Below are positions 1,292-23,369 of a stretch of 64,000 nt of DNA, one piece after another. The position numbers were made by a program, and so were the translations under genes. Where the stretch lies: assembly GCA_963701095.1 (NCBI GenBank), contig OY969564.1, positions 2,336,001-2,400,000 of the forward strand, in the 5' to 3' direction. How positions within the stretch are numbered: the first letter of the stretch is position 1; every line of letters begins with the position of its first letter. The notes under the pieces are model-generated. The model made no database searches. It was not told where the DNA came from and worked only from the letters and a program-made list of their open reading frames with translations. Source of the DNA: an uncultured Methanoregulaceae archaeon. GTDB taxonomy: Archaea; Halobacteriota; Methanomicrobia; Methanomicrobiales; Methanospirillaceae.

Positions 1292-1356
1292 GAAGCAGAA
1301 GAACATGAACCCTGACAGGTATATCCTGTTACCGGGCTTTACGTTAGGAAGAAGAA

Positions 1357-1387
1357 GATCTTCGGGGCTTCCCTCCCCTGGCCGCGT
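1357..1387 (+). repeat. Degenerate copy (E) of the dispersed hairpin repeat
   Basis: CGGGGCTTCCCTCCCCTGGCCGCGT matches the core of copies at 6507, 8049, 11097, 23695. Confidence 0.55.
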
Positions 1388-1601
1388 ATTCTGACGCCGG
1401 ATTTTCAGTTTTTTATAGAGAAAAACGTCTCTGGTGCCTTCATCAGATCATTACCTGAACATTACCACTTCGAAGAAAAGTAACACGGTGTACCTTAACA
1501 GAACGTAGCAGGAAATTAAGTAAATTCGTTGGTTGTTGCAAAAAAAAGACGTTGCAAAAATTGATAATTGAGATAACTTTTATTATTCGTCATAGTGGAG
1601 G

Positions 1602-1823
1602 ATGATACCTATGCCATACACATGGAAAACAAAAATTGATGTCGATGAAACCATTGTTGTGATCATGAGTGTTCTTGACAAGCACCCGGACCTTCCGAAC
1701 TGGCTGATTGTCACGATAATTGGCTCAATTGCCGGTTCAGATAAAAAAATGGTCAAGTATTTCTTCAACGAAGTGGAAAAACACGCCCCGTCTGCCCTGA
1801 AATATTTCGAATCAACCCAGTAG
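1602..1823 (+). CDS. Small hypothetical protein
   Basis: 73 aa ORF, GGAGGA SD. Confidence 0.65.
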   Translation: MIPMPYTWKTKIDVDETIVVIMSVLDKHPDLPNWLIVTIIGSIAGSDKKMVKYFFNEVEKHAPSALKYFESTQ

Positions 1824-1840
1824 AAGGATGAAGATTAATC

Positions 1841-2110
1841 ATGGATGTATTGGGTTCTCTTGTCGGTATCATCCTCGCAATTATCGTGGTAGTTATCATC
1901 TTTTTGCTCCTGAAAGACGTAGTAGCCCTGGTTATCAACGCAATCGTAGGTGTCATCGCCCTTTTTCTTTTAAACCTGTTTCACATAATGAGCCTTTTTG
2001 GTGCTACCGATCTTCCGATCGACTGGATTACTATCCTGATCTCTGCAATTGGTGGACTGCTCGGTGTGGTTATCGTCATCGTCCTGCATCTGGTAGGAGT
2101 TGCGTTATAG
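1841..2110 (+). CDS. BofA-family (pro-sigmaK processing inhibitor-like) small membrane protein
   Basis: Pattern INAIVGVIALFLLN...LPIDWITILISAIGGLLGV. Confidence 0.75.
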   Translation: MDVLGSLVGIILAIIVVVIIFLLLKDVVALVINAIVGVIALFLLNLFHIMSLFGATDLPIDWITILISAIGGLLGVVIVIVLHLVGVAL

Positions 2111-2224
2111 GTCATTCAACAGAGCGGATAGGACTACATTTTCGGGAGGAGCAGGTATCGAACACCTTGAGTAATGCTCCATCCGCAAGATTCTTTCATC
2201 ACCTGATAAGGATCTGTTTTTGCC

Positions 2225-2392
2225 TTACGTTGATTTGGATTTGGACATGAGGACTACGACGCCTGCCGCAATTGCAACCAGTCCCGCCAGAACGACTACT
2301 ATTTTTACCAATACGATCGTGAAAACAATGAGTACTGCAAATGCGACTAACAACAATCCAACAATAATCGCAGCCAAACCAAGCCAGTTCAT
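2225..2392 (-). CDS. Small 2-TM membrane protein (55 aa), not in ORF track
   Basis: MNWLGLAAIIVGLLLVAFAVLIVFTIVLVKIVVVLAGLVAIAAGVVVLMSKSKST*, CAGGAGAGGA SD upstream. Confidence 0.7.
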   Translation of the reverse strand: MNWLGLAAIIVGLLLVAFAVLIVFTIVLVKIVVVLAGLVAIAAGVVVLMSKSKST

Positions 2393-2813
2393 GAATCAAT
2401 TCCTCTCCTGTTCTGATTGATGAATGAATACATCACATCTGATATTTAGGGATTGCGTGGGCGGCAGGGCGGACAGTAATATATTGCCATATGATCCCCT
2501 GGTATGCTGGGAAAGGTGTTATACTGCGATTTGCGACGCGATTGTGATACATGCTGGTTCTGGTGCCTTGTCGGGACGTTTGTCCCGCGTGCAGAACTGC
2601 CAGACCCCCGGTGCGCCAATGCCAATGGAGCTCCCTGGTTCGGACTGAAGATTTGTCCCCCAGAAAGAACGGGTACATTCTCCGGGTGTCTTCGGTTCCG
2701 AAGGCGGACTAAAAAAAGTCTTTTATTTTACCTTTTTTCACAATTAACAAAGCGTTATTTAAAAAATTATGATGATTTAGTTTAATTAAATACAAACATG
2801 GAGTTGAAGGATT

Positions 2814-3484
2814 GTGGAGATAGTACCTGGAATTCACCAAGTCGATGGTGTAAATGGTAATTGTTTTATTATTGTTCGGGACGAGCTAACACTTATCGAT
2901 ACGGGAATGCCCGGAAACAGGGCAAAAATAGTAAAATATATTCAGGATGTTCTTAAACGTGAACCTTCAGAAATCAAAACTATCGTCCTGACACACTTTC
3001 ATGTTGATCACGTGGGTGACGCTTTCGATCTCAAAGAACTGAGCGGTGCGAAGGTGGCCATTCATGAAGCGGATGCGGACTATGTTTCCGGGAGAAAAAC
3101 CCAGCCTGTACCGAGAGGTGGTATAGGAATGATCCTTAAATTCCTCATGCCCCTGTTTTTCAGATCAAAGCCTGTTGAACCGGATATAAAGCTCGGCGAC
3201 GGTGACACAATCGCTGGTCTCACCACAATTCATACACCAGGACATACACCGGGAAGTATTTGTCTTTTTGATCCGGCATCAAAAATTCTGTTTGCAGGGG
3301 ATCTATTGAGGTTTGACGGCATTAACATCAAAACAGGGCCATTAACCTTATACCCGGTGAGGTAAAAAAATCAATCAATAAAATCGCCGCAATTGATTTT
3401 GATATCATGCTGTCGGGACACGGGATACCTCTTAGACCCGATGCGTCGGTAAAGGTCCGGGAGTTTGCAAAATCATTACCCTGA
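2814..3484 (+). CDS. MBL-fold metallo-hydrolase, frameshifted near 3345
   Basis: THFHVDH, HTPGHTPG, AGD motifs; C-terminus continues in another frame (...FDIMLSGHG...KSLP*) to 3484. Confidence 0.88.
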
Positions 3485-3585
3485 GTTCTCAGAGATGCAA
3501 TCTGGGAATTTCATTCCATTCGATTTTTCGATTAACAGTTCGTTATCGGTTATTTAAATAACCTCAAAGGACATCCAGATCTGAA

Positions 3586-4269
3586 CTAGGATGCAGTACC
3601 GGCGCTCTCATAAACCCGGGTTAGGTACCTCGCATAGAATATGGTAAGGATTGGCAGAACAAAAGCGAAGAGCACGGCTGCAATGACCACTCCTGGCATG
3701 AGCAGTTTAATTATCAGCACAGCACAGACAGCCTCAAGGATGAGCCCGGGTATCAGGACAACAATAATACCGATTATCAGTGCCAGGATATAGGATAACC
3801 AGCCAATCTTTTTTATCGTTGCAATAATTTCCCCGAAATTAAAAGCTTCGCCGAATTTTGCAGTGCGTGCGAAACGGATCAAGCCCATTGGCTGAATAAG
3901 GGTAATAATAATGACGACGATGGCCAGAAGACCTATGAGGACTGGACTAACCATACCTGATATCATTCCCGCCGGAGTGTTTTTGAGTGAGGGAAAAGCC
4001 AGACCAACTACGAGGAACCAGAGGATAATTGCAGGTATTGCATACACTAAACTGACGATAATGAAACGTATGCCGTCAACGATGAGTTTAGGCCAGTTCT
4101 CTACTTCGGGAGCAGGTGTTGTTCCCCGGTATACACCCATGATGTATCCCATCAGGGGGATAACGAGAATAAGTGTGGCAATAACCAGGAGCAGCCACGT
4201 CTTCATCTTGTCAATGACACCTTCCTTTACATAGGTAAAGGAGTTCCCGATAAGCGTTCCATAATCCAT
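3586..4269 (-). CDS. DUF4013-family membrane protein
   Basis: MDYG..IGNSF.Y, PLMGY, PEVENW, RFART.KFGEAFNF patterns. Confidence 0.8.
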   Translation of the reverse strand: MDYGTLIGNSFTYVKEGVIDKMKTWLLLVIATLILVIPLMGYIMGVYRGTTPAPEVENWPKLIVDGIRFIIVSLVYAIPAIILWFLVVGLAFPSLKNTPAGMISGMVSPVLIGLLAIVVIIITLIQPMGLIRFARTAKFGEAFNFGEIIATIKKIGWLSYILALIIGIIVVLIPGLILEAVCAVLIIKLLMPGVVIAAVLFAFVLPILTIFYARYLTRVYESAGTAS

Positions 4270-4448
4270 TTTATTTCACCTGAAGGATATGCTCCAATGT
4301 GATTGTTGATGTAATAATTACCCGGTTTCGCATATTCTCCGTGATCGATTCTGTTCCTACACGATAATTATTGCCCTTCAGATGCGTTCCTCTCCCACGA
4401 AGGATTTATCATACATACGTGAACTACTACAACCGGGGAGGAGTCACT

Positions 4449-4685
4449 ATGGACGAAACAAAAGACAAACTTGGTATATTTATTCCGGCAACATTCGCGA
4501 AGAGAATGATCCTGTATATAGTCATAGATCTGCTTCTGATTAACCTGATAGTGTTTTACTGGCATGAAAACATGCCATTACCTGTGGTTCTCGGTGTAAT
4601 TCTCATAGAGGTGATAGCTCTTGCTGCCGCCTTTGCATTCTGGATCCCGCAGTATCAGCGAGCAGGCGCTCATGTAAGGTGGTAA
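4449..4685 (+). CDS. Small membrane protein upstream of the ABC transporter
   Basis: GGAGGAG SD before MDETKDK; two hydrophobic segments. Confidence 0.65.
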   Translation: MDETKDKLGIFIPATFAKRMILYIVIDLLLINLIVFYWHENMPLPVVLGVILIEVIALAAAFAFWIPQYQRAGAHVRW

Positions 4686-4746
4686 ACATGAGTTTTCCGA
4701 CACGAAATCTCTCGGAAACTCCCGTCACAGTATTGGGTGCAGCGGC

Positions 4747-5667
4747 ATGATCGATGCAATAAACCTCACGAAAAAATTCGGGGACCTTACCGGGGTCGAC
4801 AGCCTGACGTTCCATGTCAGTGAAGGCGAGGTCTTCGGTTTCCTCGGCCCCAATGGTGCCGGAAAAACGACCACGGTCCGCATGCTCTGCTGCCTTATCT
4901 CAAAGACCAGCGGGGAGGCAAAGATCGCCGGGTATGATACCACAAACGACGCCGATTCCCTGAAGATCCGCAGGATCATTGGTTTTATGCCGGAAAATGT
5001 CGGCCTTTACAGCGAACTAAGCGCCTACCAGAATCTCGATTTTTACGCCAAGCTGTATGATCGTACCGAACAACAAAGAAAAGAGAGTATCGAACGCCTG
5101 CTCAGGCTGCTCGGGCTCTGGGAAAAGAAAGACGTAGCCGTGGGAACATTCTCCAAAGGCATGAAACAGAAAGTGGCCATTGCCCGTGCGCTGGTGCACG
5201 ATCCGGAGATCCTGTTTCTGGATGAACCAACGGCCAACCTGGACCCAGAAGCGGCCAAAACGGTCCGGGACTTTATCACGGAACTGAAAAAAGAGAAGAA
5301 GACCATCTTCCTCAACACGCACAACCTCGACGAGGCACAGAAACTCTGCGACCGCATCGGTATTCTCAAAACACATCTGCTCCGCATAGGGACTCCGGAA
5401 GAGCTGAAAGAGTCGCTCTGGGGTAGTAAAACGGTTATCCAGCTTGAAGAGGTCGACGACAGGATAGTTTCGGCAGTCAGACAACACACTTCAGGAAAGG
5501 TGGTGGTCGAAGACCATCGGTTGGTAATCGATGTAAAGAACGCCGGAAAAGAAAATCCCGGTCTGGTCCAGGCCATCGTGGCCGCGGGGGGCCGGGTCCA
5601 GTTCGTCCAGGGACTCAATCCCACCCTTGAAGACGTATACCTGAAGACCGTGAGGGAAACGCTATGA
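4747..5667 (+). CDS. ABC-2 type transporter ATP-binding protein
   Basis: Walker A GPNGAGKTT, signature FSKGMKQK, Walker B LFLDEP. Confidence 0.95.
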   Translation: MIDAINLTKKFGDLTGVDSLTFHVSEGEVFGFLGPNGAGKTTTVRMLCCLISKTSGEAKIAGYDTTNDADSLKIRRIIGFMPENVGLYSELSAYQNLDFYAKLYDRTEQQRKESIERLLRLLGLWEKKDVAVGTFSKGMKQKVAIARALVHDPEILFLDEPTANLDPEAAKTVRDFITELKKEKKTIFLNTHNLDEAQKLCDRIGILKTHLLRIGTPEELKESLWGSKTVIQLEEVDDRIVSAVRQHTSGKVVVEDHRLVIDVKNAGKENPGLVQAIVAAGGRVQFVQGLNPTLEDVYLKTVRETL

Positions 5668-6410
5668 GATTTTCAAAAGCATGGATCATCGCGTCGAAAG
5701 ATATCGACATCTTCCGGAAAAAGAAGAGTATCTTCTACAGCGTGATCCTTCTTCCTCTCTTTGTATCCGTCGGTCTGCCCCTGATGATCTTCTTTCTTTC
5801 AGCAGGATCCGGCAGTAGCATTTCAGATGTCCAGTCAGGCCTGCCCCCTGTCATAAATGCATTCTCGTTTGTGTTCCTGATCGGTGCTGCAAGCCTCCCG
5901 ACCGTGATCGCATCCTACAGTATTGTGGGTGAAAAACAGGAACAGAGCCTGGAGCCCCTGCTCGCCACCCCCACCACCGACAGCGAGATCCTCCTGGGAA
6001 AAAGCATCGGGGCACTCCTTCCCCCCCTGGTTGCCATCTGGATCGGTGGGGTGATCTTCATGTGCATGATCGACGCCGTCACCTCTGGTCTGCTTGGCTA
6101 CCTCTATTATCCCAACGGAATGATAGCGGTCATCATGCTGCTCCTGGTGCCCCTGGCAGCTATCACGGCGGTGGAAGTGAGCGTGATTTTCTCGGCCCGG
6201 ATAAACGATGTACGGACCGCACAGCAGCTCGGGTCCCTGATCGTGATCCCCTTTGCGGTGATCTACCTGCTCGGGGAGATAAACGTGTACCCGCTTACGA
6301 TACCCTATCTCCTCATCATCTCGGTAATCATTCTTGTCGCCGACGTAGGGCTTTTCTCTCTTGCTGTGTCTACATTCCGGAGAGACGAGATCCTCACAAA
6401 GTGGAAATGA
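5664..6410 (+). CDS. ABC-2 type transporter permease
   Basis: SIVGEKQEQSLEPLLATP motif, ~6 TM, ATGA overlap with ATPase. Confidence 0.92.
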   Translation: MRFSKAWIIASKDIDIFRKKKSIFYSVILLPLFVSVGLPLMIFFLSAGSGSSISDVQSGLPPVINAFSFVFLIGAASLPTVIASYSIVGEKQEQSLEPLLATPTTDSEILLGKSIGALLPPLVAIWIGGVIFMCMIDAVTSGLLGYLYYPNGMIAVIMLLLVPLAAITAVEVSVIFSARINDVRTAQQLGSLIVIPFAVIYLLGEINVYPLTIPYLLIISVIILVADVGLFSLAVSTFRRDEILTKWK

Positions 6411-6414
6411 AATC

Positions 6415-6490
6415 CTGCATGTGCCAATAAGATCCCTGGTACGCTGGGTGTGTCCGTGATGACACGAGGCGGGATGCGGAGGGTTATTGA
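6415..6490 (+). pseudogene. Eroded remnant of a HIT gene 3' end
   Basis: GATCCCTGGTACGCTGGGTGTGTCCG...CACGAGGCGGGATGCGG...TATTGA aligns by eye to the 3' ends of the HIT genes (GATCCCCCGGTATGCCGGGGATGTCCGG...CACGGGGTGGGATACG...TATTGA). Confidence 0.6.
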
Positions 6491-6506
6491 GGGAATTTTT
6501 TCAGAA

Positions 6507-6546
6507 GACGCATCACCGGGGCTTTTCGCCCCTAGCCGCGTGGGCT
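6507..6546 (+). repeat. Dispersed hairpin repeat copy A
   Basis: GACGCATCACCGGGGCTTTTCGCCCCTAGCCGCGTGGGCT. Confidence 0.8.
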
Positions 6547-6724
6547 AACTCCCGGAGGTTTAGTCATTGACGAGTATTTTTCCTTAACCTCTCATTACAA
6601 AAACCAATTACTCCGGTATCCTTATTGTTGCTCTCCACGCTGGGAAATTTCTGAAGTATTGGGAAAAACGTACGAGATGGACAAAGTAACAGGATGAACT
6701 TTGTATCAAACCGGTTTCTGAACG

Positions 6725-6763
6725 TTAATGCACATAATGTGCATTAAGCGCTAAATGTGCATT
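6725..6763. promoter_or_regulatory. Perfect 23 bp palindrome plus third half-site; putative protein-binding site
   Basis: TTAATGCACAT-A-ATGTGCATTAA (6725-6747), extra AATGTGCATT at 6754-6763. Confidence 0.45.
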
Positions 6764-6776
6764 CGCTGACCGGGAA

Positions 6777-7248
6777 CTATGGAAGAACTGCCTGCCGCCA
6801 TTGATCGGCTGGTGTTTTTTTTGCATCGAGCCAATCGAAAAGGTTCATGGTAGGGCTGTCTTTGTGGAAGTATTCCGGGTTCACACAATCGGTGCCAACG
6901 GCCGACCAGGAGCCCCCCTCCATAAAATCAATTCGGACGTGTTCATCTTTTGTATTCACAAATATGATCTTGATGTTGGCATATTGCGTCCATTCTTTGG
7001 CTATATCCATGACTTTAGCCCGTTGCAAATCCTTACCGCCGATAAAGCGGCACTTCAACTCAAAACCCGCTGGCCACATTTTATTGTTTTGGATAGCCAT
7101 CAGCGGGACCGCAATACCCATCTTCGGGTTAACAGTACCGCTTAGTGCCATGCAGCGCTGCGGCGATATATGCCTGATGCTTCTTCGAATTTGCCACTTC
7201 TTTAGGAATGATACGATCGAAACAGATTTTAAGATTAGATTTCTTCAT
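6777..7248 (-). pseudogene. Truncated astacin/M12A-like zinc metallopeptidase
   Basis: N-terminus MKKSNLKICFDRIIP, then frameshift; W..G..L.CRFIGG, AKEWTQYANI, GSWSAVGTD, PTMN; stops at VLP* where VLHEFGH would be expected. Confidence 0.7.
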
Positions 7249-7434
7249 ACCGGTGGTCCTCCTTTTTCGATAACGAATTCCTGAGAAGAAACCCTGAGGT
7301 TCCTCCATAACATCTCCCTTTTTGGGTACCGAGAATATAATTATTAATAATATAATAACTAGCTCATGTTTGTACCGGATTTTCAGTTATTATAGAGAAA
7401 AAGCAATAATTCCTGAACTGATATATCTGGTTAT

Positions 7435-7665
7435 ATGGGATCGTTTGATCTCGAAAATTTCAAAACGATCAATACGATTATTGAGCGTGACAGCAAGGAC
7501 GCGACCTACAAGTTTGCCCTGTTACGCGGTGTCATCGAGATTTCGCAGGAATACCAGCAACTGGTAAAAGAATCCGGGGATCGTGTTTCGCTTCCTCTCG
7601 GTCTTCTCATTGAGAAATGCGCATATCTTATTGATGTCCGGGGGTTTGATGCATGGCGCCGGTGA
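7435..7665 (+). pseudogene. Internally deleted copy of the HNH nuclease gene (N- and C-termini only)
   Basis: Near-identical to 9560..10714 ends; 924 bp in-frame deletion at TGAGAAATG/TGAAAAATG. Confidence 0.9.
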
Positions 7666-8030
7666 AATGCCCGTTCTGTAATCCGCTGGCTGAAGATATT
7701 ATTGCACGGAACGATCTCTGTTATGCCCGCTGGGACCGGTTCCCGGTGAGTAAGGGGCATTTATTGATTATTCCGTTCCGGCATGTACCGGATTTCTTTT
7801 CAATGACTGTTGAAGAGAAACAGGCGATGGTTGGCCTGATTGATGCGTGCAAAGGTGTCATTGAGGAAAATTTCCAACCGGCCGGCTATAACCTCGGGAT
7901 CAACGTTGGCGCAGCGGCCGGGCAGACGGTGATGCACTGCCATTGCCATATGATCCCCCGGTATGCCGGGGATGTCCGGAACCCGAGAGGCGGTGTACGG
8001 GGGATTGTCCCGGGGAAGAAGGAGTATTGA
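7653..8030 (+). CDS. HIT family nucleotide hydrolase (copy 1)
   Basis: CPFC, PVSKGHLLIIP, histidine triad GQTVMHCHCHMIPR. Confidence 0.95.
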   Translation: MAPVKCPFCNPLAEDIIARNDLCYARWDRFPVSKGHLLIIPFRHVPDFFSMTVEEKQAMVGLIDACKGVIEENFQPAGYNLGINVGAAAGQTVMHCHCHMIPRYAGDVRNPRGGVRGIVPGKKEY

Positions 8031-8048
8031 TGGGGGATTTTTCTAGCG

Positions 8049-8087
8049 GACGCTCACCGGGGCTTACCGCCCCTTGACGCGTGGGCT
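8049..8087 (+). repeat. Dispersed hairpin repeat copy B
   Basis: GACGCTCACCGGGGCTTACCGCCCCTTGACGCGTGGGCT. Confidence 0.8.
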
Positions 8088-8157
8088 TTCCCCAAAGGGA
8101 TGGCAATGACGTGAAAAAAGATCCTCGAATGACAGTGCATCATAAAACCGGAAAAAC

Positions 8158-8235
8158 GATACACAACAGCTCTTGTGTATCACTGGTGAGACACAAGACT
8201 GCTTTGTGTCTCACGTTTGTATGATTATGATACAC
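8158..8235. repeat. Tandem inverted repeats built from a GA(T/G)ACACAA half-site
   Basis: GATACACAA-n6-TTGTGTATC; GTGAGACACAA-n7-TTGTGTCTCAC; extra TGATACAC at 8228. Confidence 0.7.
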
Positions 8236-8261
8236 TACGGTCCCGGACGATTATGGAAAAA

Positions 8262-9368
8262 TTACCAGCTGCTGCTCTCAGTGATGGCGATCAGCCGGGA
8301 GAATCGGTAAATCGTCGGGCTCGTTCCTTTCCCTTCCCGGGTTACCGTGAGGATATTCCCCGCTGTCAGCCCCTTCAGGACCCGGTGGGCGCTCGGCTTG
8401 GGAATTCCCGATTCCGCAATGAAATCGTAACTCTTGAAAATCGGGCGTGAGAAGAGCGTATCAATCGCCTTTATGGTATACTGCGAATGCGTTACCTCAG
8501 GGACTTCCTTTTTCATCTCTTCATAAAGCTCAATAATCGCCGTAGCTTTCTGGTTGTTCTCGGTCGCCTGTTCGATGAGCGCATGGAGGAAGAACCCTAT
8601 CCAGCCGTTCCAGTCGTTCTCACGGGAGATGGCAAGCAGCCTTTCGTAATATTCATCCCGGTGATGCTCGAGGTAAGCACTGATGTAGAACATCGGCGTT
8701 GAAAGGATCTTTTTGTTATAGAGGATGATGGGAACCAGCATCCGCCCGATTCTTCCATTCCCGTCGCGGAACGGATGGATGAGCTCAAACTGCGCTTTGA
8801 GTACCGCAAGCTGAACGAGCGGGTCCCGCTCTTCATTGTGCAGGTAATTCTCCCAGTTTGTGAGGGCATCCATAATGAGGTTCGGCGGGGGAGGAATGAA
8901 CGTGGCTCGTTCGATTGGCGTACCGTAAGGAGCGATGTAGTTCTGGATGCGGCGGATCTCCCCGGGCTCCCGGTCACGCCCCCGGACACTGGTCAGCAGG
9001 ATGCGGTGGAGATCGCGAATCATGTTTGTACAGATCGGCCGTTTTCCCAGATCCTCAACCGCAGCCCGCATTGCGGTCCGGTAATTGATGATCTCCTGGA
9101 TATCCAACCGTTTCTCCGGAGTAATCTTGTGTGCCTGGTCCGCTTCAAACTGCAGGACCTCTTCGAGGGATGCCTGAGTACCTTCTATCCGTGACGAGAG
9201 GACTGCTTCCCGGATGGCGAGCGGCGAAAGAAGGATCTCAGGATTGACAATGCCCTGGAGCAGGCCGTCATACCGGGCAAGGGCCGCATTCGCTTTACCG
9301 ATAAGGGGAATGTGTGCCATCCAGTCGATGTCATCGAGCGGGAGGGTCCGGGGCGTGTACGGCTCCAT
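8262..9368 (-). CDS. fic: Fic family protein (AMP transferase) with C-terminal wHTH
   Basis: Canonical HPFRDGNGRIGR; inhibitory motif SSRIEG; C-terminal HTH-like segment. Confidence 0.93.
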   Translation of the reverse strand: MEPYTPRTLPLDDIDWMAHIPLIGKANAALARYDGLLQGIVNPEILLSPLAIREAVLSSRIEGTQASLEEVLQFEADQAHKITPEKRLDIQEIINYRTAMRAAVEDLGKRPICTNMIRDLHRILLTSVRGRDREPGEIRRIQNYIAPYGTPIERATFIPPPPNLIMDALTNWENYLHNEERDPLVQLAVLKAQFELIHPFRDGNGRIGRMLVPIILYNKKILSTPMFYISAYLEHHRDEYYERLLAISRENDWNGWIGFFLHALIEQATENNQKATAIIELYEEMKKEVPEVTHSQYTIKAIDTLFSRPIFKSYDFIAESGIPKPSAHRVLKGLTAGNILTVTREGKGTSPTIYRFSRLIAITESSSW

Positions 9369-9559
9369 TTCTGACTTCAGTATAGTGTCTGGGAGAATAT
9401 TAGGTTTGGCAGAGGATTTACGAGGTTTTTCGACATTTCATTTGATGTGTGCTTCGTATCCTTATTGAAACCCGGGAATTTTACCCGTCGCTTATTCACG
9501 CTTTTATCCGGTTATTATAGAGGAAAAAGCAATAATTCCTGACAGATAAATCAGTTACT

Positions 9560-10714
9560 ATGGGATCATTCGATCTCGAAAATTTAAAGACTATCAATAC
9601 GATTATTGAGCGGGATAGCAAGGACACGACCTATAAGTTTGCCCTGTTACGCGGTGTTATCGAGATCTCGCAGGAATACCAGCACCTGGTAAAGGAATCC
9701 GGGGATAGTGTTTCGCTTCCTCTTGGTCTTCTCATTGAGAAATGGCTTTTGTACTATTATCCTGTCATTGAAAGCCAGGCATTTTTACCCCAACTGCATG
9801 GCGAGAAACCGGATTCTTTCCACAAGAGGATATCCTTCCGGCCGCTGTTCAGGGAAGTGACGGATTATTATGCAGGAAAGGGCGGCTTTTCGGCCTTCTA
9901 TAATGACTATGTGAATGGGTCCCTTGCTCCTGAAATTTCACCGGCTGTTTATGCATTGATTGCAAAAATCAGGACAACGATAACCACTATGCCTATGAAA
10001 CATCTCGGCCGCTCGCAGGGACACCGGGATTACTCTGTTTTTTCGTACAACAGGGATGCCCGCCGGATTCCCGCCGGGATGCCTGTTGGCCAGGAATCGG
10101 TTGTGCAATATTCCGGGACATTTTCTTTCCGGAAGGACCTTTTCCTGGTATTCCAGTACCTGGGCAGTTTCATCTCCGGTGATGATTCGCTGGTATACCA
10201 ATGGGCTGAGTTTACGCGTAAGGCAAGCGGGGGCACCCTTGCTGTTGCTGCGGTTATGGAAACATTGCGGACTATGCCGGAAACCGAAAGGGCGGTGAGC
10301 GAGGCCCGGCAGGTCTATACCCAGTTGTACCAGAACTATCACCATCTTGCATGCGTGTGGTCCGGGAAGCCGATCACGGATATGGGGCTGCTTCATGTGG
10401 ACCATATGATCCCGTTCTCGGTCTGGAAGAACAACAATCTCTGGAATTTGATGCCAGCATATGAGAGTATTAATGCAAAAAAACGGGATATGATTCCTTC
10501 ACCGGAATTTATTGAAAAAAGAGCGGATGCCATTGTCACGAACTGGAACAGTATGTACAAGGTCTATCCCAAACGGTTCTTGCGGGAGATTAATCTCGCC
10601 CTGGTCGGTTTGCCGGAGCAATCTTCTGGCTGGCAGGATGTAGCTTTGGAACGGCTCGGTGAAAAATGCGCATATCTGATTGATGTCCGGGGGTTTGATG
10701 CATGGCGCCTGTGA
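9560..10714 (+). CDS. HNH endonuclease domain protein with TYKFALL N-terminal domain
   Basis: CVWSG...HVDHMIPFS..KNNNLWNLMPA..SINAKKRD HNH motif. Confidence 0.85.
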   Translation: MGSFDLENLKTINTIIERDSKDTTYKFALLRGVIEISQEYQHLVKESGDSVSLPLGLLIEKWLLYYYPVIESQAFLPQLHGEKPDSFHKRISFRPLFREVTDYYAGKGGFSAFYNDYVNGSLAPEISPAVYALIAKIRTTITTMPMKHLGRSQGHRDYSVFSYNRDARRIPAGMPVGQESVVQYSGTFSFRKDLFLVFQYLGSFISGDDSLVYQWAEFTRKASGGTLAVAAVMETLRTMPETERAVSEARQVYTQLYQNYHHLACVWSGKPITDMGLLHVDHMIPFSVWKNNNLWNLMPAYESINAKKRDMIPSPEFIEKRADAIVTNWNSMYKVYPKRFLREINLALVGLPEQSSGWQDVALERLGEKCAYLIDVRGFDAWRL

Positions 10715-11079
10715 AATGTCCTTTCTGTAATCCGCTGGCTGAAGATATTGTCGCACGTAACGATCTCTGCTATGTCCGCTGGGACATATTCCCGGTGAGT
10801 AAGGGGCATTTACTGATTATTCCGTTCCGGCATGTACCGGATTTCTTTTTATTAACTATTGAAGAGAAACAGGCGATGGTTGCTTTGGTTGATGTGTGCA
10901 AGGGTGTTATCGAGGAAAATTTCCAACCGGCTGGGTACAACATCGGGATAAATATTGGCGCAGCAGCCGGGCAGACCGTGATGCACTGCCATTGCCATAT
11001 GATCCCCCGGTATGCCGGGGATGTCCGGAATGCACGGGGTGGGATACGTGGAGTTGTGCCGGGGAAGAGGGAGTATTGA
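10702..11079 (+). CDS. HIT family nucleotide hydrolase (copy 2)
   Basis: HCHCH triad; near-identical to 7653..8030; overlaps HNH stop. Confidence 0.95.
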   Translation: MAPVKCPFCNPLAEDIVARNDLCYVRWDIFPVSKGHLLIIPFRHVPDFFLLTIEEKQAMVALVDVCKGVIEENFQPAGYNIGINIGAAAGQTVMHCHCHMIPRYAGDVRNARGGIRGVVPGKREY

Positions 11080-11096
11080 GGGGGATTTTTTTAGAG

Positions 11097-11133
11097 GACG
11101 CTCATCGGGGCTCCGTCCCTTGCCGCGTGGGCT
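11097..11133 (+). repeat. Dispersed hairpin repeat copy C
   Basis: GACGCTCATCGGGGCTCCGTCCCTTGCCGCGTGGGCT. Confidence 0.8.
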
Positions 11134-11191
11134 AATTCGGGAGAATAAAAATTAGATAATTATTAACGGCTCTAACTTGTGATATTAAATA

Positions 11192-11605
11192 ATGACTGAT
11201 GTCTTGACCAAAGAGCAGCGGACATTTAATATGTCAAAGATCCGGGGAAAAAATACCGGACCTGAGATCAAATTAAGAAAAATGCTCTGGTCACAGGGCA
11301 TCCGAGGCTATCGCATCCACTATATACTGCTAGGCAAACCCGATATCGTCTTCACAAAAAAGAAAATCGCAATTTTTGTTGATGGCTGCTTCTGGCACAA
11401 GTGTCCAGTCTGCTTTCAGGCTCCTGAAACCCGAAAAGAATTCTGGATGAAAAAGATCCAGTCAAATGTCGACCGCGATAAAAAAATTAATGATAAGTTA
11501 CAGATTGACGGATGGACCGTAATTAGAATATGGGAGCATGAAATCCGGAAAGAACCTGAAATAGTGATTAAAAAATTAATCAAGAAAATGTCGATATCAG
11601 CTTGA
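11192..11605 (+). CDS. vsr: Very short patch repair endonuclease
   Basis: MSKIRGKNTGPE, GKPDIVF, FVDGCFWH, FW..KI..NV.RD, IWEHE. Confidence 0.95.
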   Translation: MTDVLTKEQRTFNMSKIRGKNTGPEIKLRKMLWSQGIRGYRIHYILLGKPDIVFTKKKIAIFVDGCFWHKCPVCFQAPETRKEFWMKKIQSNVDRDKKINDKLQIDGWTVIRIWEHEIRKEPEIVIKKLIKKMSISA

Positions 11606-11629
11606 CATGATTAATTATACCTTTAATCT

Positions 11630-13594
11630 TTAAATTTCCTCATCGCTATCATCGCCGCCGGACTTGCAAATATCGAGGTCTTCTCCTTGAGTTTTATCAT
11701 TTTCTAGGACAGTATCCTCTTCAAGAAGATATTTAATGTCCGGAATTATTGGATTTCCTGCTTTTCCAAAATATTCATCCCGTGTTTTAACAGATTCTTC
11801 ACTGATTAGCTCTTTTTTTAATGATTCCGGGATATCTATCCGGATTTTTTGGACCGATTTCCAGCATTCTTTCTTTTTACACCATTCGGAAATATTTCTT
11901 GATCCCGAAGGACCTTCGGTAATTGTGTTTCTGACTTCCGATGCCAGCTGACCAATAAATTTCTGAAGGGCAGGTGACAGATCCTGCTCCTTCCAGATTT
12001 TTTCAAGATCAATTCGTTTATTGGTCAATTTTGAAAGAATTGCAATAGTATAGGTCACATAATTTCCCTTGTATGGCCCGAAGTCCAGTTTCTTAATAAT
12101 TCCATCCGTTTTTTTGAACAAAATCGCTTTGGCTACAAGAAGCGAGAAGTAATACTTGTCGGGAATCTGAAGCGGACCTTTTTTTTGCTTTAATACAAAG
12201 GCACGGAAATTTTTCTGACTCCCAAGACTGACTATGTCAGGCATCTGATCCCACGAATTTTCATATTTTGCCAGATCTGTTTTTGTAAATCTCTGATGTG
12301 TCGGATTTTTGTCAGAAAAAATTGCTTTCAACTTCGGGGTCCTTTCTCTTTCTTTATCCACCTGATATTGCCCCCGTGCACGTTCATAGTACCAGTGCGT
12401 GTCCTGCTGACTCCCCTTTTTTGCAGGAGCCAAGACAGAACGGGACATTTTCTGGATTTCAATATGGAATTCTTCATTGGATACAAAATCCGATTCAGAG
12501 ATCCTATTCTGACTGTTAGCATATTGAGTGATTTTCGGGACGATAAATTTCATGTCGTTCTGATTTTTCAGAACTGTTAATTTGACCTGAACGAGAACTT
12601 CAGATATGTCACATTTTTCCTTAAAATAGGTATAGTGAATTGCTGCAGTAGTCTGACCGCCATTAACAATCTGAAAATCCCTGATCCAAGAAATGCCGGG
12701 AATACCGCAACTATTCTTTTCCAGTTTGACACACTCAGCAGTTGTCGAAATTCCGTTATTATATGCAAGGAACATGCAAGGTTCATTATGGATAGTTTCG
12801 CGGATTCCTTTGTTCACCTTTCCCTTCATTTGCAGGAATACCCGGATATTCCTTTCAAGAAGCTTTGGCCCGTATTTTCCATATAATTCGGCAACCATTT
12901 TTCCCGGCATTATTGCCAAGTATGATGTGTACCGGGGATTCTCGTTAGGCATTTCAAGACAGGTAAGAGGCGCCCCAAAATCCTTTATAAAATCTATCTC
13001 TATTGGTTCGGGCCGATTTCCTGAACTAGCAAGCCCGAACAATCGCTTTAAATCCCATATCTGATAAGAAATTCTGATTCCGTCTTCATTATCATCAGGA
13101 ATGGGCTCCGGTTTTACAATCCCATCTGTAATGATAAACAGATTTACACCAACGATATTTTCCCTGTTATTATAGATTGTATCGGCAAGATCAAATGCCG
13201 GATTTGATTCTTCAATTTTACCATATTTTTTATTAAGTGCGTTGGAAAGAAAGGTCCTGATCTTTTTGATATATGAATTGATATCAGATTTTGTTACCGG
13301 AATCCGGGAATATTCATTTGTGTAAACTGAAATGAAGAGATCAAAAAAAATCCCCTCTTTGTCACCATTGTTTTGAGTATTAAGGTTACTGTTATACGCA
13401 TTAATTTTGAAGCCTTTTCCTTCTAGGCGGCACAGAATATAATCTTCAATCACTGCAATATCTGTAAGATAATCAAGAAACTTTTCTGTGAACTGCTCTT
13501 CCATGAATGCTTCTGATTCGGGATCTTGGGCTGCATCAATAACATCCCGCTGAAAATTCTCGGCAAATTGTTCAAAATCACTCTCGTTGGTCAC
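11630..13594 (-). CDS. AIPR family protein
   Basis: LLERNIRVFL, FLAYNNGI, QIVNGGQT, ANSQN, WYYERARGQY. Confidence 0.92.
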   Translation of the reverse strand: MTNESDFEQFAENFQRDVIDAAQDPESEAFMEEQFTEKFLDYLTDIAVIEDYILCRLEGKGFKINAYNSNLNTQNNGDKEGIFFDLFISVYTNEYSRIPVTKSDINSYIKKIRTFLSNALNKKYGKIEESNPAFDLADTIYNNRENIVGVNLFIITDGIVKPEPIPDDNEDGIRISYQIWDLKRLFGLASSGNRPEPIEIDFIKDFGAPLTCLEMPNENPRYTSYLAIMPGKMVAELYGKYGPKLLERNIRVFLQMKGKVNKGIRETIHNEPCMFLAYNNGISTTAECVKLEKNSCGIPGISWIRDFQIVNGGQTTAAIHYTYFKEKCDISEVLVQVKLTVLKNQNDMKFIVPKITQYANSQNRISESDFVSNEEFHIEIQKMSRSVLAPAKKGSQQDTHWYYERARGQYQVDKERERTPKLKAIFSDKNPTHQRFTKTDLAKYENSWDQMPDIVSLGSQKNFRAFVLKQKKGPLQIPDKYYFSLLVAKAILFKKTDGIIKKLDFGPYKGNYVTYTIAILSKLTNKRIDLEKIWKEQDLSPALQKFIGQLASEVRNTITEGPSGSRNISEWCKKKECWKSVQKIRIDIPESLKKELISEESVKTRDEYFGKAGNPIIPDIKYLLEEDTVLENDKTQGEDLDICKSGGDDSDEEI

Positions 13595-14612
13595 ACAGAT
13601 CCCTCCCTAAACCTGACAAAAAATCTGCCTCGCTCACTCTAAATGGAATACACGAAGACAAATCAATGGTATAATGCACATCTCCCACTCCATTTCTCAA
13701 ATCATTTTCAATAATCCGGGGAAACTCATTTTTAACCAGAAAAATATGGATATCCCTGTCAACATAACCACGGGAATCATATTTTATCCTCTGTTTGTCG
13801 ATATATCCGGCTTTAAACAATTGCATCTCAAATTCGTGAACCGGACCTTTTTGTAAAGCAATCTGATTTCGGATTTGATCAATAATTGCAGGAAGTGTTT
13901 CCCCGGTTTCATTTACTTCATGAAGAGAAAGATGATAGATATAGAGTACATTTAATCCTGTATCATCCAGTTGCTGTTCACTGGCAATGGGAATTTTCTG
14001 GTGTTGTTTGGCAATATTTGTTTTCACTTCAACACCTATGCCGGATATCAGGAAATCCTGATTTCCTTTTGAAGGACCTTTCCATGCACGAATGGCTTTT
14101 TCAATTCCAATTCTCGGAAAAAGAATGTCCCGTAAAAACCTCATTTCCCCGTACAGACCCCGCTGATATTCGGGGCTTAAACCCTGCGATCCGAAAACAT
14201 CAAGAAAATGATGCCACATCAACAGACGTTCTATTATTCCTCGGACCATTTGCTTCTGATTCTTTTCCGAATTTGCTGTTTGATAAATATCTTCACAAAG
14301 CGTTGAAAAAATATCGGTAAAGGTCGGATCATTCAGAATAAAACCAACAATTAATGATCCTGGATTGTCATCGTGAAAATTCACGGGGGAAATATCAAAA
14401 CCCCGTAATTGAGGTAACGACCGGAATTCAGCGTAATTATGTTTTTCAACCCGAATGAGGAGCATTCTACGGTTTGCAGGTTTTTCATAACCAAGAAAAA
14501 TGTCATGAGATATATCGGGTGATATTCTTCGGATAATTATCCCATTTTCATCTTCGTTCGCGGATGACTCTTCCAGAATTTTCCAGATTGGATCAAATTT
14601 TTCAGCTGTCAA
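13578..14612 (-). CDS. PD-(D/E)XK motif protein (DUF4420 type)
   Basis: QRGLYGEM, WKGP...QDF...VEVKT, IASEQQLD. Confidence 0.88.
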   Translation of the reverse strand: MTAEKFDPIWKILEESSANEDENGIIIRRISPDISHDIFLGYEKPANRRMLLIRVEKHNYAEFRSLPQLRGFDISPVNFHDDNPGSLIVGFILNDPTFTDIFSTLCEDIYQTANSEKNQKQMVRGIIERLLMWHHFLDVFGSQGLSPEYQRGLYGEMRFLRDILFPRIGIEKAIRAWKGPSKGNQDFLISGIGVEVKTNIAKQHQKIPIASEQQLDDTGLNVLYIYHLSLHEVNETGETLPAIIDQIRNQIALQKGPVHEFEMQLFKAGYIDKQRIKYDSRGYVDRDIHIFLVKNEFPRIIENDLRNGVGDVHYTIDLSSCIPFRVSEADFLSGLGRDLCDQRE

Positions 14613-17346
14613 ATTCCTGCTCCCAATAAATGTTATTTACTTTATATGTGATTTTGACTGCTTTTTTGCTATCCGGGAAACTGAATGCAAGACCTATTAC
14701 AGGAATTTTTACATCAACTTTCAGCGGTTTTGGATCCAATGGATAAATTAGCAGAAGACCTCTTGTCGGGGGCCGTGCCGCTCGAATATAAGGTCCGCTT
14801 GGAATTGTTTTTTCATTAAATTCTTTATCGGTTCTATCTGGATCATTTTTCATCAACTCCAAGGCGAGTTTGTATTCCTCGTTTGTTAAATCAATAGATT
14901 CATGCCGTGGGCTGATGATTTGCGCCTTTTGCAGTATATAATTTTCATCTCTTTCGGTCAGACCTATAGTGTGACAATTGAAGTTGTATACATTTGCAGC
15001 TTTTTGTCGGCTAATCAGTGCAATAGTCCAAGATTTCAGTTCTCCAACTTCATTTTGCTTCTGAATATACTGGCGTATTAAATCCGGCCGTATTGTTTTC
15101 GAAAAAAACTGATACTCGTCAAGAATCTGAAAAATAATTTCTGAATTTATACCACTCCAGATTGGCGTATCACCCTTCATTGTTGAAGTGGTTCCCATTT
15201 TTTTAACAATATTTTCGATGCAGTTCAGATTATTCTCCAGAGTCATTGGGTCTTTGCTGAAAGATGTGGTCTGGGGTTTTGAATTCGAAAATGTACACTG
15301 CATTTCAGTACCGGATCTCATTTTGTTCACCGCAGTGATTTTCAGACCTTCCGGATGAGTTCTCACTCGGAGCCCATAATCCGCGGGGGTCGCTTTCAGG
15401 GATGCCATATAATCGAATTCATTTCGTAAGTCTTCCGAGGCCATGTTGATAAATGAATACCATTCAACAAGTTCATGTGAGGTATAGAGCCGGCATAAAT
15501 CAATATATCCCGGCCTGAATCCGAACCATCGTCCCATCTGCATCAAGGTATCGTACATTCGTGAAGCACGGAGATAGTAACTAACTGTGAGCCCTTCGAG
15601 TGTGAGACCGCGGGATAATTTATCTCCCCCGATTGCAATGATACTGATACCGTCCGGATTATCCTTGTAATCAAGGGCATCTTTAGCCGTTCCGTTAATT
15701 ATTTTTATTCGGATTTTTGCAGCAGCTGCATAAAGATTTGATTTTACTGAAGCCCAGTCAACATTCGTGAGAAGTGGATCATCTATGCGCCGGGTGATAT
15801 CCGCTGTTGTTGGTACATAGTCTTCCCGCCAGAGGTTTTCCATCTCCCGGTAAATGCTTGTTTCTGAGTCCGGGTTCTCATATTCTAACCGGCGTCTTTG
15901 GGCTGTAAGTTCAACACTAATGAGAGCTGCAAGTTTGTCCTGTACGGATATGTATCGTGTAACATGCACAAGCATAGAGTTATGACATCTTGTCTCGCCA
16001 CGAGATTTTCTAGCAGCACATGAAATAATGAACGCATTAATCGCTCTCTTTAGAGATTCTGGTAATTCTTCTGGATTGAAAAATTTTGTGTGTTTATCCG
16101 GTATTAATGTCTCATAATCTCGGATAATACGGATAATGGGTAACCCCGCTTCTTTTTCGGAATCCGGGTCATCGTCCTGTGTAAAGCCAAAAATTTGTGA
16201 AGGCCCCACATAATTAGGAGGAGGAGGAAGGTTGATTATAAAATCTCTTGGGAAAAGATCCTCACCATGCGTTGTTGTCTCTCCATCAGGATAAATAAAA
16301 ATATTTGCGAACGGCGTTGCCGTATATCCAACATAAGCACTTTTTTCGAAATGATGCAATAGCTCACGGATTTTTCCGTTGATTGCGCTGACATCATAAT
16401 CGGGGAGAGGACGATCGTTTTCATCACGTGGGATAGGATTCGTATTCACTGACGCATTATCTGCTTCATCATCAATAACAAGCAAAGGGATATTCCGGAC
16501 AACAATTTTATCTGTGTTCGGATCTCTCTGACCTTTGACACTAATCGCCCATTTGATAAGATTTGCTAAAACCGATTTCTGTTTTTTTACAACAAGGATT
16601 ACTGGATCAGTACCCCCCGGCAATACTCCGACTTGTTGAGCCACTCTTTTATTAAAATCTCCATTATCTTCACTACTGGTGAGAGAACTGACTGCAAATA
16701 ATTCCTCGCCGGGCAGTTTTCCGACCCCTGTTCGCAGATTTTCCGTATCGAATTTTCTCCCACGTCTTGTATCAAATCCCAAAAAACCTTCGTCAAGACG
16801 AAGCTGGGTTTGGCTTCTGAGGCTTTTATGCATCCCTGCAAGGACAATAACAAGTTTATATCCTGCATCCGCAGCTTTGCAAATCAGACCCGTGTAGTTG
16901 GAAGTTTTTCCGGACTGAACCTGCCCGACTACCATCCCCCTACGATCCCATTCACCTTCACGGAGTGGATACTCGAGGAGTTCAAGAACCTTGTCAGTGA
17001 GTTCATCGATACGGATAATTGATGATTCATGAATCCCCTTTTCTTCCATCAGATAGCGCTGGTATCTATTCCAGAATTTCCATTTTATCTGACTTTTTCT
17101 GTCAGGGAGCCAAGCAATATGGGTTTTCTGATTATCTTCAAGAATCGTTGCCCGGCCTTTCCAAATTTCACAGCGGGATTCAATGTCCCGGATCAGATAT
17201 TCGATATCAAACGGCTCAAAATTTTTTTCCTCCTTGATCATTGAAAGGACACGTTCACATTTTTGCCGGATAATCTCTACTGTCGGTGTTTGCTCACTCT
17301 TGAGCATTATGAGAACGTGCTGTCTTGCTTGATCAATTGAAGACAT
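14602..17346 (-). CDS. Z1-domain SF2 helicase-like protein/endonuclease
   Basis: GQVQSGKT, IDDEADNAS, YVGYTATPFAN, GGDKLSRGLTLEGL, DTLMQMGRWFGFR. Confidence 0.93.
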   Translation of the reverse strand: MSSIDQARQHVLIMLKSEQTPTVEIIRQKCERVLSMIKEEKNFEPFDIEYLIRDIESRCEIWKGRATILEDNQKTHIAWLPDRKSQIKWKFWNRYQRYLMEEKGIHESSIIRIDELTDKVLELLEYPLREGEWDRRGMVVGQVQSGKTSNYTGLICKAADAGYKLVIVLAGMHKSLRSQTQLRLDEGFLGFDTRRGRKFDTENLRTGVGKLPGEELFAVSSLTSSEDNGDFNKRVAQQVGVLPGGTDPVILVVKKQKSVLANLIKWAISVKGQRDPNTDKIVVRNIPLLVIDDEADNASVNTNPIPRDENDRPLPDYDVSAINGKIRELLHHFEKSAYVGYTATPFANIFIYPDGETTTHGEDLFPRDFIINLPPPPNYVGPSQIFGFTQDDDPDSEKEAGLPIIRIIRDYETLIPDKHTKFFNPEELPESLKRAINAFIISCAARKSRGETRCHNSMLVHVTRYISVQDKLAALISVELTAQRRRLEYENPDSETSIYREMENLWREDYVPTTADITRRIDDPLLTNVDWASVKSNLYAAAAKIRIKIINGTAKDALDYKDNPDGISIIAIGGDKLSRGLTLEGLTVSYYLRASRMYDTLMQMGRWFGFRPGYIDLCRLYTSHELVEWYSFINMASEDLRNEFDYMASLKATPADYGLRVRTHPEGLKITAVNKMRSGTEMQCTFSNSKPQTTSFSKDPMTLENNLNCIENIVKKMGTTSTMKGDTPIWSGINSEIIFQILDEYQFFSKTIRPDLIRQYIQKQNEVGELKSWTIALISRQKAANVYNFNCHTIGLTERDENYILQKAQIISPRHESIDLTNEEYKLALELMKNDPDRTDKEFNEKTIPSGPYIRAARPPTRGLLLIYPLDPKPLKVDVKIPVIGLAFSFPDSKKAVKITYKVNNIYWEQEFDS

Positions 17347-18874: not shown

Positions 18875-18951
18875 TCAGATCATCACTATCGAGAGAGATT
18901 TTTTGTATATTGATAATTATAGTATGATCTGTATTATCTATTGTGTTTTAA

Positions 18952-22837: not shown

Positions 22838-22874
22838 AGCATGCACCTCCGGAACACCAAAAAATGCCCCGACA

Positions 22875-23369
22875 TCATATCCCCGCCTCCTCAAGCGCGG
22901 CCAAAAGTTCAGCATGGATTTCGGGATGTTTCGATAAAATACGCATGAGAACCGGCCACTCCGGGGACGTTGTAATAGTCTGGACGCCGACATTTACTTG
23001 GACGGCAGTCTGGTTTCTGGCATTCAGCTCCCCGGTAACCTGTCCCAGCAGCTCTACACAACCCCGGGCTTCCCGGATCGCACTTATTGCTGTCCGCAGG
23101 TCGCCGGCTGTCTCTGCCTTGTTCATGTACGAGATCGATTTGCTGAGGAGACCTTTTGTCCACTTTAGGAGATCCTCTCCATTGGCGATCTGTCGTGCCT
23201 CTTCAGCTTTTGCGACAGATGCCGAAATGTGACCAGCTTTTTGATGATCGTAGAGGCTGCTTTTCGTGGCACCGAATTGTTTAGCGATAGTCCGGAGGGA
23301 TGTACCTCTGATAATTTCCTGATCAATTTCTGTGCGACTTTTGTGTGCACAAATACAACATTTTTTCAT
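22875..23369 (-). CDS. Putative terminase small subunit (Cys/His + HTH N-terminus, helical C-terminus)
   Basis: CCICAH..R.EID..I..G.SLR.IAKQFG..KSSL..H; sits immediately upstream of terL. Confidence 0.65.
   Translation of the reverse strand: MKKCCICAHKSRTEIDQEIIRGTSLRTIAKQFGATKSSLYDHQKAGHISASVAKAEEARQIANGEDLLKWTKGLLSKSISYMNKAETAGDLRTAISAIREARGCVELLGQVTGELNARNQTAVQVNVGVQTITTSPEWPVLMRILSKHPEIHAELLAALEEAGI

Follow-up and report, generated by a model that had tools for sequence, protein, structure and literature searches.

In integrons, the attC sites of the cassettes carry two short boxes, R'' (RYYYAAC) and R' (GTTRRRY), and on Acinetobacter plasmids Xer-dependent pdif modules hold small cargo modules between recombination sites. 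Bacterial palindromes of the REP/REPIN families exceed 100 copies per genome in one account, which also lists REP classes (CGTC-tagged) that have no dedicated transposase (PMC3733652). The processes that build and rearrange defence islands are not settled, least of all for archaea, whose integrons are rare and whose hotspots have barely been described. The locus analysed here lies in a 64,000-nt window of an uncultured Methanoregulaceae archaeon (assembly GCA_963701095.1, contig OY969564.1; G000:C1:2336001-2400000 in our numbering), whose 2.63-Mb single-contig genome, G000, is estimated to be 86% complete. Its defining feature is an imperfect palindrome of ~53 nt, called REP below. The region is a variable, cassette-like Methanoregula island punctuated by REP, and blocks really are gained, lost and transferred at these repeats. 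We give an even chance to the further reading that REP is a recombination junction and that the array in this genome is an orphan.

A conserved repeat restricted to one genus

REP is conserved in sequence across 15 aligned copies from the window and from relatives. Its parts are, in order, a short G/T-rich lead-in, an ACGC...GCGT outer stem, a GGGGC...GCCCC inner stem, a variable loop, the invariant GCCGCGTGGGCT and a C-rich tail, and a T-run stands at its 5' end. The stems are invariant, whereas the loop varies in sequence and in length, from 3 to 60 nt. Three REPs of locus L027 (G019:C6; 16373-16474, 17233-17337 and 17996-18105) have loop insertions of 51-60 nt that fold into extra small hairpins. 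A covariance model, R1, places three plus-strand copies in the window, one minus-strand copy and one weak match (Table 1). The first-pass annotation, made from the letters of the window, had reported the 3' end of a HIT gene plus a hairpin three times; these three copies stand, and the fourth, inverted one had been missed. Genome-wide, G000 holds six REPs at E≤1 plus the weak one, of which five lie in the present locus and the others at C1:2321521 and C1:2618949. Elsewhere in G000, two T4 gp19-like tail-tube genes lie beside a thermosome gene (C1:2320572-2321516; L023 9073-10017), with a REP 4 nt after the second.

REP is specific to the genus Methanoregula and does not depend on the HNH-HIT operon in which it was noticed. 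It is present in 74 of 108 Methanoregula genomes (E≤1e-7) at 1-13 copies each; beyond the genus, weak matches occur in only 1 of 16 relatives, and the REP pattern has no match in IMG/VR viral contigs. The annotation had taken a unit of leader, HNH, HIT and hairpin to be what recurs. The recurring unit is instead the 53-nt REP, found in 21 of 24 relatives within the genus as against six for HNH, and also situated behind many other genes. Between species, REP is 92-97% identical and the adjoining HNH-HIT DNA 77-80%.

Gain, loss and transfer of blocks at REPs

A stretch of 4661 nt (6478-11133) is 96.8% identical between the window and genome G041, although core genes of the two genomes are only 84-90% identical. 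The left end of the shared block lies 23 nt ahead of REP1, and its right end is the final base of the REP3 core. On the upstream side, G041 carries different cargo and more REPs, and the Mza/Dcm/Vsr cluster that follows REP3 in the window was not found in G041. A second case of transfer comes from G003 and G015 (L038 and L039), in which a REP-bearing stretch is 97.6% identical and the adjacent core DNA 88.9%. A survey covered ~70 REPs in 34 loci and yielded 378 distinct points at which homology between genomes ends; 40 of them fall within 15 nt of a REP, compared with 5.8 at random (maximum 15 in 1000 trials), a count to be read with the provisos that the loci were picked for holding REP or HNH and that intergenic ends are favoured in any case.

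Population data point in the same direction. Metagenome contigs (not reads) from four runs of different studies were placed on the region; such contigs break at repeats. Contigs of runs X1 and X6 span REP1-passenger-HNH and HIT1-REP2-SoFic-HNH2, matching the assembled layout, and the double module recurs in an independent metagenome-assembled genome at 96.8% identity; the duplication is thus real and not a mis-assembly. Alternative alleles are also present. In X6 and X7, the REP core is joined to leader 1 and HNH with two letters between (11136->7375), a passenger-less arrangement of the kind that the annotation had suggested looking for. X7 contains a further passenger-less joint (6553->7434), and one X7 contig has a single-module allele in which HIT1 is joined to the REP3 region (8031->11082). 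After 6546/6548 in the REP1 core, contigs of X6 and X15 go on in three different ways, and some of these may represent other REP loci.

The space between a REP and the HNH leader differs from one genome or locus to the next. It is empty in G021, G007, G006, L053, L058 and L060, and it holds a PLD gene in G008, YhcG in G023, and a peptidase fragment or SoFic in the window, so cargo is not fixed at this junction and the earlier claim of changing passengers stands. In G023, ~21 nt of the REP 3' end are repeated on the far side of YhcG. Likewise, passenger 1 of the window lies between two imperfect direct copies of 12 nt from the REP 3' flank: CCGGAGGTTTAG (6552-6563) and CCGGATTTTCAG (7375-7386). 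Assignment of the ORF within that passenger (6777-7151, minus strand) to an astacin/M12-like peptidase is at the level of a lead, coming from Atlas only (score 0.94, TM 0.65-0.70), with nothing from Pfam. The SoFic gene of passenger 2 is not the same cassette as the Fic gene of G021, to which it is only 37% identical.

At the left of the island, a decayed REP runs into a remnant of the HNH promoter and leader, which had been read as the same junction with no passenger. The remnant (1397-1425) matches 7375-7402 at 27 of 29 positions (BLAST E 0.002-0.012), and the junction as a whole beats 500 of 500 shuffles. Because an nhmmer profile of REP-to-HNH-leader junctions built from six relatives only also hits 1349-1425 (E 0.002 genome-wide), this empty junction is real, though it is no longer followed by an HNH gene. 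In five relatives, the left flank shows scattered synteny, and no clean empty site can therefore be defined.

The HNH-HIT modules

The HNH-HIT module is doubled in the window. The copies are 90% identical between 7386-7619 and 9511-9744 and 88% between 7611-8087 and 10660-11133, and the HNH leader, correctly noted earlier as occurring twice, matches at 31 of 32 positions (7386-7416 and 9511-9542). HNH copy 1 has been reduced to 76 aa by an in-frame internal deletion, with its junction at a short microhomology, and has lost the HNH domain. Both HIT genes are intact. Divergence between the HIT genes is substantial (synonymous divergence, dS, 0.47; ratio of nonsynonymous to synonymous divergence, dN/dS, 0.12), as it is between the HNH N-termini (dS 0.33, dN/dS 0.09). 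On these values, the modules are old paralogues, both under selection, and not a fresh tandem duplication; the graded decay described earlier does not reflect a recent series. Traces of further copies remain. The HIT remnant at 2483-2511 matches both HIT copies at 27 of 29 nt (E 1.6e-4; tblastn over 25 aa, E 0.06-0.085), and it, like the remnants at 6395-6560 and 1349-1386, outscores 500 of 500 dinucleotide shuffles.

HNH and HIT form a conserved pair that is also found in contigs of Bacteroidota and Ignavibacteria, where model R1 found no REP. Beyond the window (9560-11079), the pair was seen at loci L051, L052, L055 and L057, and is conserved across Methanomicrobiales, Bacteroidota and Ignavibacteria. 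The HNH protein has 1291 homologues, named merely as HNH-domain proteins; it gave no significant fold match beyond a Cas9-type HNH domain (HNH_4) and no named NCBIfam family. Together, HNH and HIT are a candidate for an uncharacterised two-gene defence module.

The HNH-HIT operon usually lies ~50 nt 3' of a REP (six species), a proximity that raises the prospect of nuclease-driven homing. The HNH enzyme next to a REP, or another HNH or GIY-YIG nuclease, would cut REP-flank alleles lacking it, and repair from the donor would co-convert nearby cargo. Direct neighbours of REPs do include one GIY-YIG gene and HNH genes belonging to three Pfam families. Most REP-bearing genomes have no HNH, however, HNH-HIT occurs without a detected REP in Bacteroidota and Ignavibacteria, and HNH copy 1 has been kept despite the loss of its nuclease domain. 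We regard homing as very improbable.

Orientation of REPs and the LE-REP element

Among the 150 strongest matches listed for the genus, every contig with REPs in both orientations (18 of 18) has all plus-strand copies before all minus-strand copies, with their 3' ends inward. The window obeys this convergent rule, 6501-11143 on the plus strand facing 23685-23740 on the minus strand. Only two divergent pairs were seen, both among weak matches. Homologous islands in this count are not independent, yet the rule spans very different cargo. In L028 (G015:C82), a single HNH_2 gene lies between inverted REPs (2044-2098, plus; 3694-3747, minus; whole unit 2044-3774), an arrangement that resembles a minimal REP-bounded unit.

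REP also forms the last 53 nt of a conserved non-coding element of ~440 nt, LE-REP, which exists in full and in partly deleted copies. At least five genomes have LE-REP at the borders of islands, its REP directed towards the cargo; the G000 copy is at C1:2618564-2619000 (L024 9565-10001), and others are given in Table 1. A partly deleted LE-REP precedes the REP upstream of HNH in G006 and G007. Against Rfam, LE-REP gave chance-level matches only. A GC-rich segment, the G-box, lies before REP in LE-REP; it also lies after REP in both G042 and G076, and after REPs behind core genes (G010).

These copies invite an explanation in which REP is a non-autonomous mobile element, akin to a MITE (a miniature transposable element with inverted repeats) or a REPIN, representing the 3' end of a ~440-nt master LE-REP that inserts behind genes, so that arrays are clusters of insertions. 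The terminal position of REP in LE-REP, its sharp ends on both sides in many contexts and its dispersal at low copy number within one genus all suit such an element. Random insertion would not be expected to produce the convergent order seen in all 18 contigs, no Y1 or RAYT transposase is present in the genome, and no target-site duplication surrounds REP. Moreover, orthologous flanks with and without REP were not found, and the copies are far fewer than in REP/REPIN families (>100). An insertion-cluster origin is accordingly quite improbable.

Is REP a recombination junction?

A candidate enzyme is found elsewhere in the genus. In G042:C2, 14 nt separate the end of a gene for a 395-aa Xer-like tyrosine recombinase from the REP that follows. 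The enzyme's best NCBIfam match is archaeal XerA at 92 bits (cut-off 220), and REP-linked recombinases reach 52-57 bits against the integron-integrase model TIGR02249 (cut-off 265). A homologue that is 79% identical ends 18 nt before a REP in G076:C397, and a decayed copy beside a glutamyl-tRNA synthetase gene ends 4 nt before one in G013:C24. Behind a copy in G083:C51 that is 96% identical stands a degenerate REP-like site carrying an insertion of 24 nt; in G023 the recombinase gene is cut by the contig end. The annotation's statement that there is no local integrase therefore stands for the window and does not extend to the genus. Of the two enzymes it had proposed to look for near the repeat, the tyrosine recombinase adjoins REP at 4-18 nt in three genomes; RAYT (PF01797) has no match in G000, estimated to be 86% complete, in a search in which control genomes gave matches. 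The layouts int-REP-G-box, core gene-REP-G-box and int-REP-other could be read as attP-, attL- and attR-like states, respectively.

Site-specific action of the Xer-like recombinase on REP is favoured but unproven; strand exchange at REP and the enzyme performing it are both inferred. On this model, REP-bounded blocks would be inserted, deleted, duplicated, inverted and exchanged between lineages, new cargo would land at the 3' flank of REP, and the most likely catalyst would be an Xer-like tyrosine recombinase supplied in trans. Further deletions and duplications would come from ordinary homologous recombination among REP and HIT copies. As the window encodes no cognate recombinase, its array is taken as an orphan, which would be comparable to an attC cluster without an integron.

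Several observations weigh against REP as a site of recombination. The REP-linked recombinase subfamily occurs in only ~5 of 108 genomes of the genus, and G050, with seven REPs, has no match to the recombinase query at E 1e-15. None of the scanned window ORFs encodes a tyrosine recombinase; the nearest one (424 aa, C1:2327043-2328317, 8 kb to the left) was discarded as a candidate, its homologues not being REP-linked in relatives. In five REP-rich genomes, tyrosine recombinases are not on the array contigs, G042:C2 excepted. The passengers of the window have a full REP at their left only, with the 12-nt flank repeat and no second full REP at their right. Breakpoints fall at several places (before REP1, inside the 3' end of HIT2, after ACGCT and after GGGCT), a scatter that fits homologous recombination equally. 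No circle or excision product was demonstrated in the metagenome contigs; an 11091->6513 joint may be another strain's layout. A classical double-strand core site of Xer type does not admit a spacer of varying length. Folding energy of the hairpin is no better than that of shuffles (z 0 to -1.7), and RNAalifold found no convincing covariation in REP, nor in LE-REP; structure beyond the conserved stems is thus unsupported by either measure. Finally, simple integration yields direct repeats and would not predict the convergent order; nor do integrons, dif modules or random insertion predict it.

Gene context adds a further difficulty. By crude ORF calling, 17 of 70 REPs start between -15 and +40 nt from a co-oriented stop codon, against 2.5 at random. 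The genes concerned are many and unrelated, so that a REP next to an integrase gene may be a further example of the same kind, passed on with the block. This pattern is what would be expected if REP were a passive cis element of 3' ends, acting as terminator, RNA-stability element or insulator, recognised by a host factor and travelling with genes, while ordinary duplications, deletions and homologous recombination produced the arrays. That breakpoints map to REP would then merely reflect its being better conserved than anything else in a fast-evolving island. Consistent with that account are the T-run at the 5' end, the retention of REP by both HIT paralogues and by several other gene families, the spread of breakpoints over more than one base, and the many REP-bearing genomes without a linked recombinase; the inward orientation would suit an insulator of island borders. 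Yet the T-run precedes the hairpin instead of following it, the hairpin energy is ordinary, and 53 near-invariant nucleotides would make a long terminator. Upstream of many REPs there is no co-oriented gene, and REP is limited to variable islands at 1-13 copies and does not extend across all operons. The duplicated 3' flank around passengers and the ~440-nt LE-REP at borders are also left unexplained. A passive role for REP appears somewhat unlikely on this balance.

The recombination-junction reading can be taken a step further, to REP arrays as an undescribed archaeal gene-capture system analogous to integrons. In that system, an Xer-like recombinase with a C-terminal zinc-ribbon extension would recombine folded sites of ~53 nt with free loop length, collecting defence and other cargo into two inward-facing arrays, and most genomes would carry orphan arrays served in trans. 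We consider this full scheme unlikely.

Layout and cargo of the island

By ORF and family scans, the window begins with a YhfC-like protease gene (518-1291), small membrane ORFs, a metallo-beta-lactamase-fold gene and a DUF4013 gene. An ABC-2 transporter (4747-6410) and the two HNH-HIT modules with passengers between them come next, and Vsr, the Mza operon, a Dcm-type methylase and two unannotated ORFs follow.

Table 1. Coordinates of the island's features. Positions refer to the window, except for LE-REP copies, which are numbered within their own loci; bit scores are those of covariance model R1.
Feature	Position	Strand	Remarks
Empty junction	1348-1425	+	decayed REP (1348-1402; 10.7 bits, E 0.5) fused to HNH promoter/leader remnant (1397-1425); no HNH gene after it
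HIT remnant	2446-2514	+	histidine-triad motif region; no detectable REP after it
HIT 3'-end remnant with REP1	6415-6556	+	internal deletion, T-run, REP1 6501-6556 (56.5 bits)
Passenger 1	6557-7374	-	ORF 6777-7151, possible astacin/M12-like peptidase fragment; small ORF 7129-7308
Module copy 1	7375-8097	+	leader; deleted HNH 7435-7665; intact HIT 7653-8030; REP2 8043-8097 (61 bits)
Passenger 2, SoFic (Fic/DOC) defence gene	8262-9368	-	Pfam Fic_N and Fic; PADLOC SoFic, E 1.8e-114, residues 2-363
Module copy 2	9511-11143	+	leader; intact HNH 9560-10714 (384 aa); HIT 10702-11079; REP3 11091-11143 (62 bits)
Cargo after REP3	11192-20223	mostly -	Vsr 11192-11605 (+), then Mza operon and Dcm-type methylase (-)
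MzaE	11630-13594	-	PADLOC, E 1e-99
MzaD	13578-14612	-	PADLOC, E 1.8e-20
MzaC	14602-17346	-	PADLOC, E 4.3e-207
MzaB, first ORF	17346-17972	-	PADLOC, E 5.2e-39; C-terminal half of model
MzaB, second ORF	17996-18874	-	PADLOC, E 9.9e-64; N-terminal half of model
Dcm-type methylase	18952-20223	-	Pfam
Cargo ORFs	20801-23393	-	730 aa (20801-22993) and 172 aa (22875-23393); no Pfam, PADLOC or NCBIfam family
Inverted REP4 with HIT 3' remnant	23685-23777	-	REP4 23685-23740 (57 bits); remnant ~23741-23777, upstream on the minus strand; right-hand, inward-pointing end of the island
LE-REP, L031	9520-9937
LE-REP, L032	8001-8435	-
LE-REP, L036	8060-8488	-
LE-REP, L026	12170-12582	-

Homologues of MzaB to MzaE lie in one operon, which identifies an Mza defence system. 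Because MzaB is split into two ORFs, the system may be broken. Cargo between the decayed copies at the left is of another kind, consisting of the ABC transporter, the metallo-beta-lactamase-fold protein and small membrane proteins.

Across the genus, defence or mobile-element genes lie within 3 kb of a REP in ~22 of 28 annotated loci by our own tally, and the other loci abut core genes. Neighbours include YhcG, SoFic and other Fic proteins, Schlafen-like helicases, HTH-M78 peptidases and PLD-helicase-DUF3427 proteins; Eco29kI and Eco57I-like restriction-modification, HsdR, DndB and QueC/TGT; and AbiEii, MazF, HEPN/NT and ArdC. The proposal of a hotspot for defence cargo is partly borne out, in that cargo is variable and blocks are gained and lost; it was too narrow in that cargo is not confined to defence, and repeated acquisition would be the work of the mechanism outlined above.

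Elsewhere, the window contains two further repeat pairs, 33781-33963 with 36201-36383 (183 nt, 88.5%) and 34008-34121 with 43403-43514 (114 nt, 78%), and two internally repetitive stretches (27505-28146 and 47284-47649). No tRNA gene or Rfam family was found in the window, and cumulative GC skew was uninformative.

Significance

Throughout a genus of peatland methanogens, REP provides a short, searchable DNA signature for where variable islands end and where their parts are joined, and the comparisons above bring direct evidence of REP-bounded blocks moving between lineages and name a candidate recombinase. If REP is a recombination site, the sequence between REPs would offer a new route to archaeal defence systems, and REP itself a possible genetic tool for methanogens and a second, independent solution to cassette capture. 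If it is merely an element of 3' ends, it would still be a useful marker of recently exchanged DNA.

Comparison with known systems

The REP array could be assigned to none of the families tested, and a limited literature search found no published description of this repeat or of REP-like arrays in Methanoregula. Resemblance to bacterial REP/BIME and REPIN-RAYT sequences, as one account presents them (PMC3733652), lies in short GC-rich palindromes that are lineage-specific and situated downstream of genes. The Methanoregula repeat differs in its 1-13 copies, its 53-nt length with two stem tiers, its restriction to variable islands and its archaeal host.

Serial accretion at a single att site, as in tRNA-gene islands, shares several features with the present locus. 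Direct core repeats of ~50 nt are accompanied by displaced HIT 3' ends, and an integrase gene abuts the repeat in some genomes, though neither in the window nor in most REP arrays. Runs of co-oriented REPs also occur. In contrast to such islands, the target here is no tRNA gene, most units are single genes or small systems without an element backbone, and the set in opposite orientation is unexplained.

The dif and pdif sites differ from REP in architecture. REP does not have the 11-6-11 arrangement, and its copies do not alternate in orientation; with a spacer of 3-60 nt instead of the fixed 6-8 nt that separate the two 11-nt arms of a Xer/dif-type site, it is not dif-like. The parallel with pdif modules is one of logistics, in that a recombinase encoded elsewhere would move small cargo modules bounded by sites.

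Integrons differ from the REP array on several counts. REP has no R''/R' pair, and it is conserved in sequence and not in structure alone. With boxes allowed 35-140 nt apart, the RYYYAAC heptamer was present in 22 of 70 REPs and both boxes, correctly spaced, in 1 of 70, in keeping with the earlier remark that no attC consensus is present. REP passengers occur in both orientations and include multi-gene systems, and the arrays comprise two convergent sets. The recombinase scores far below the cut-offs for IntI and XerA and, where present, is co-oriented with its 3' end at the site. The likeness to integron arrays and to clusters of attC sites lacking integrases (CALINs), as an account of archaeal integrons describes them (Ghaly et al. 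2022, PMC9668308), lies in the following: imperfect palindromes with variable loops, some of them standing right behind ORFs, divide unrelated cargo, the array considered here has no local integrase, and the candidate enzyme falls among the Xer-like tyrosine recombinases, which NCBIfam lists beside the integron integrases.

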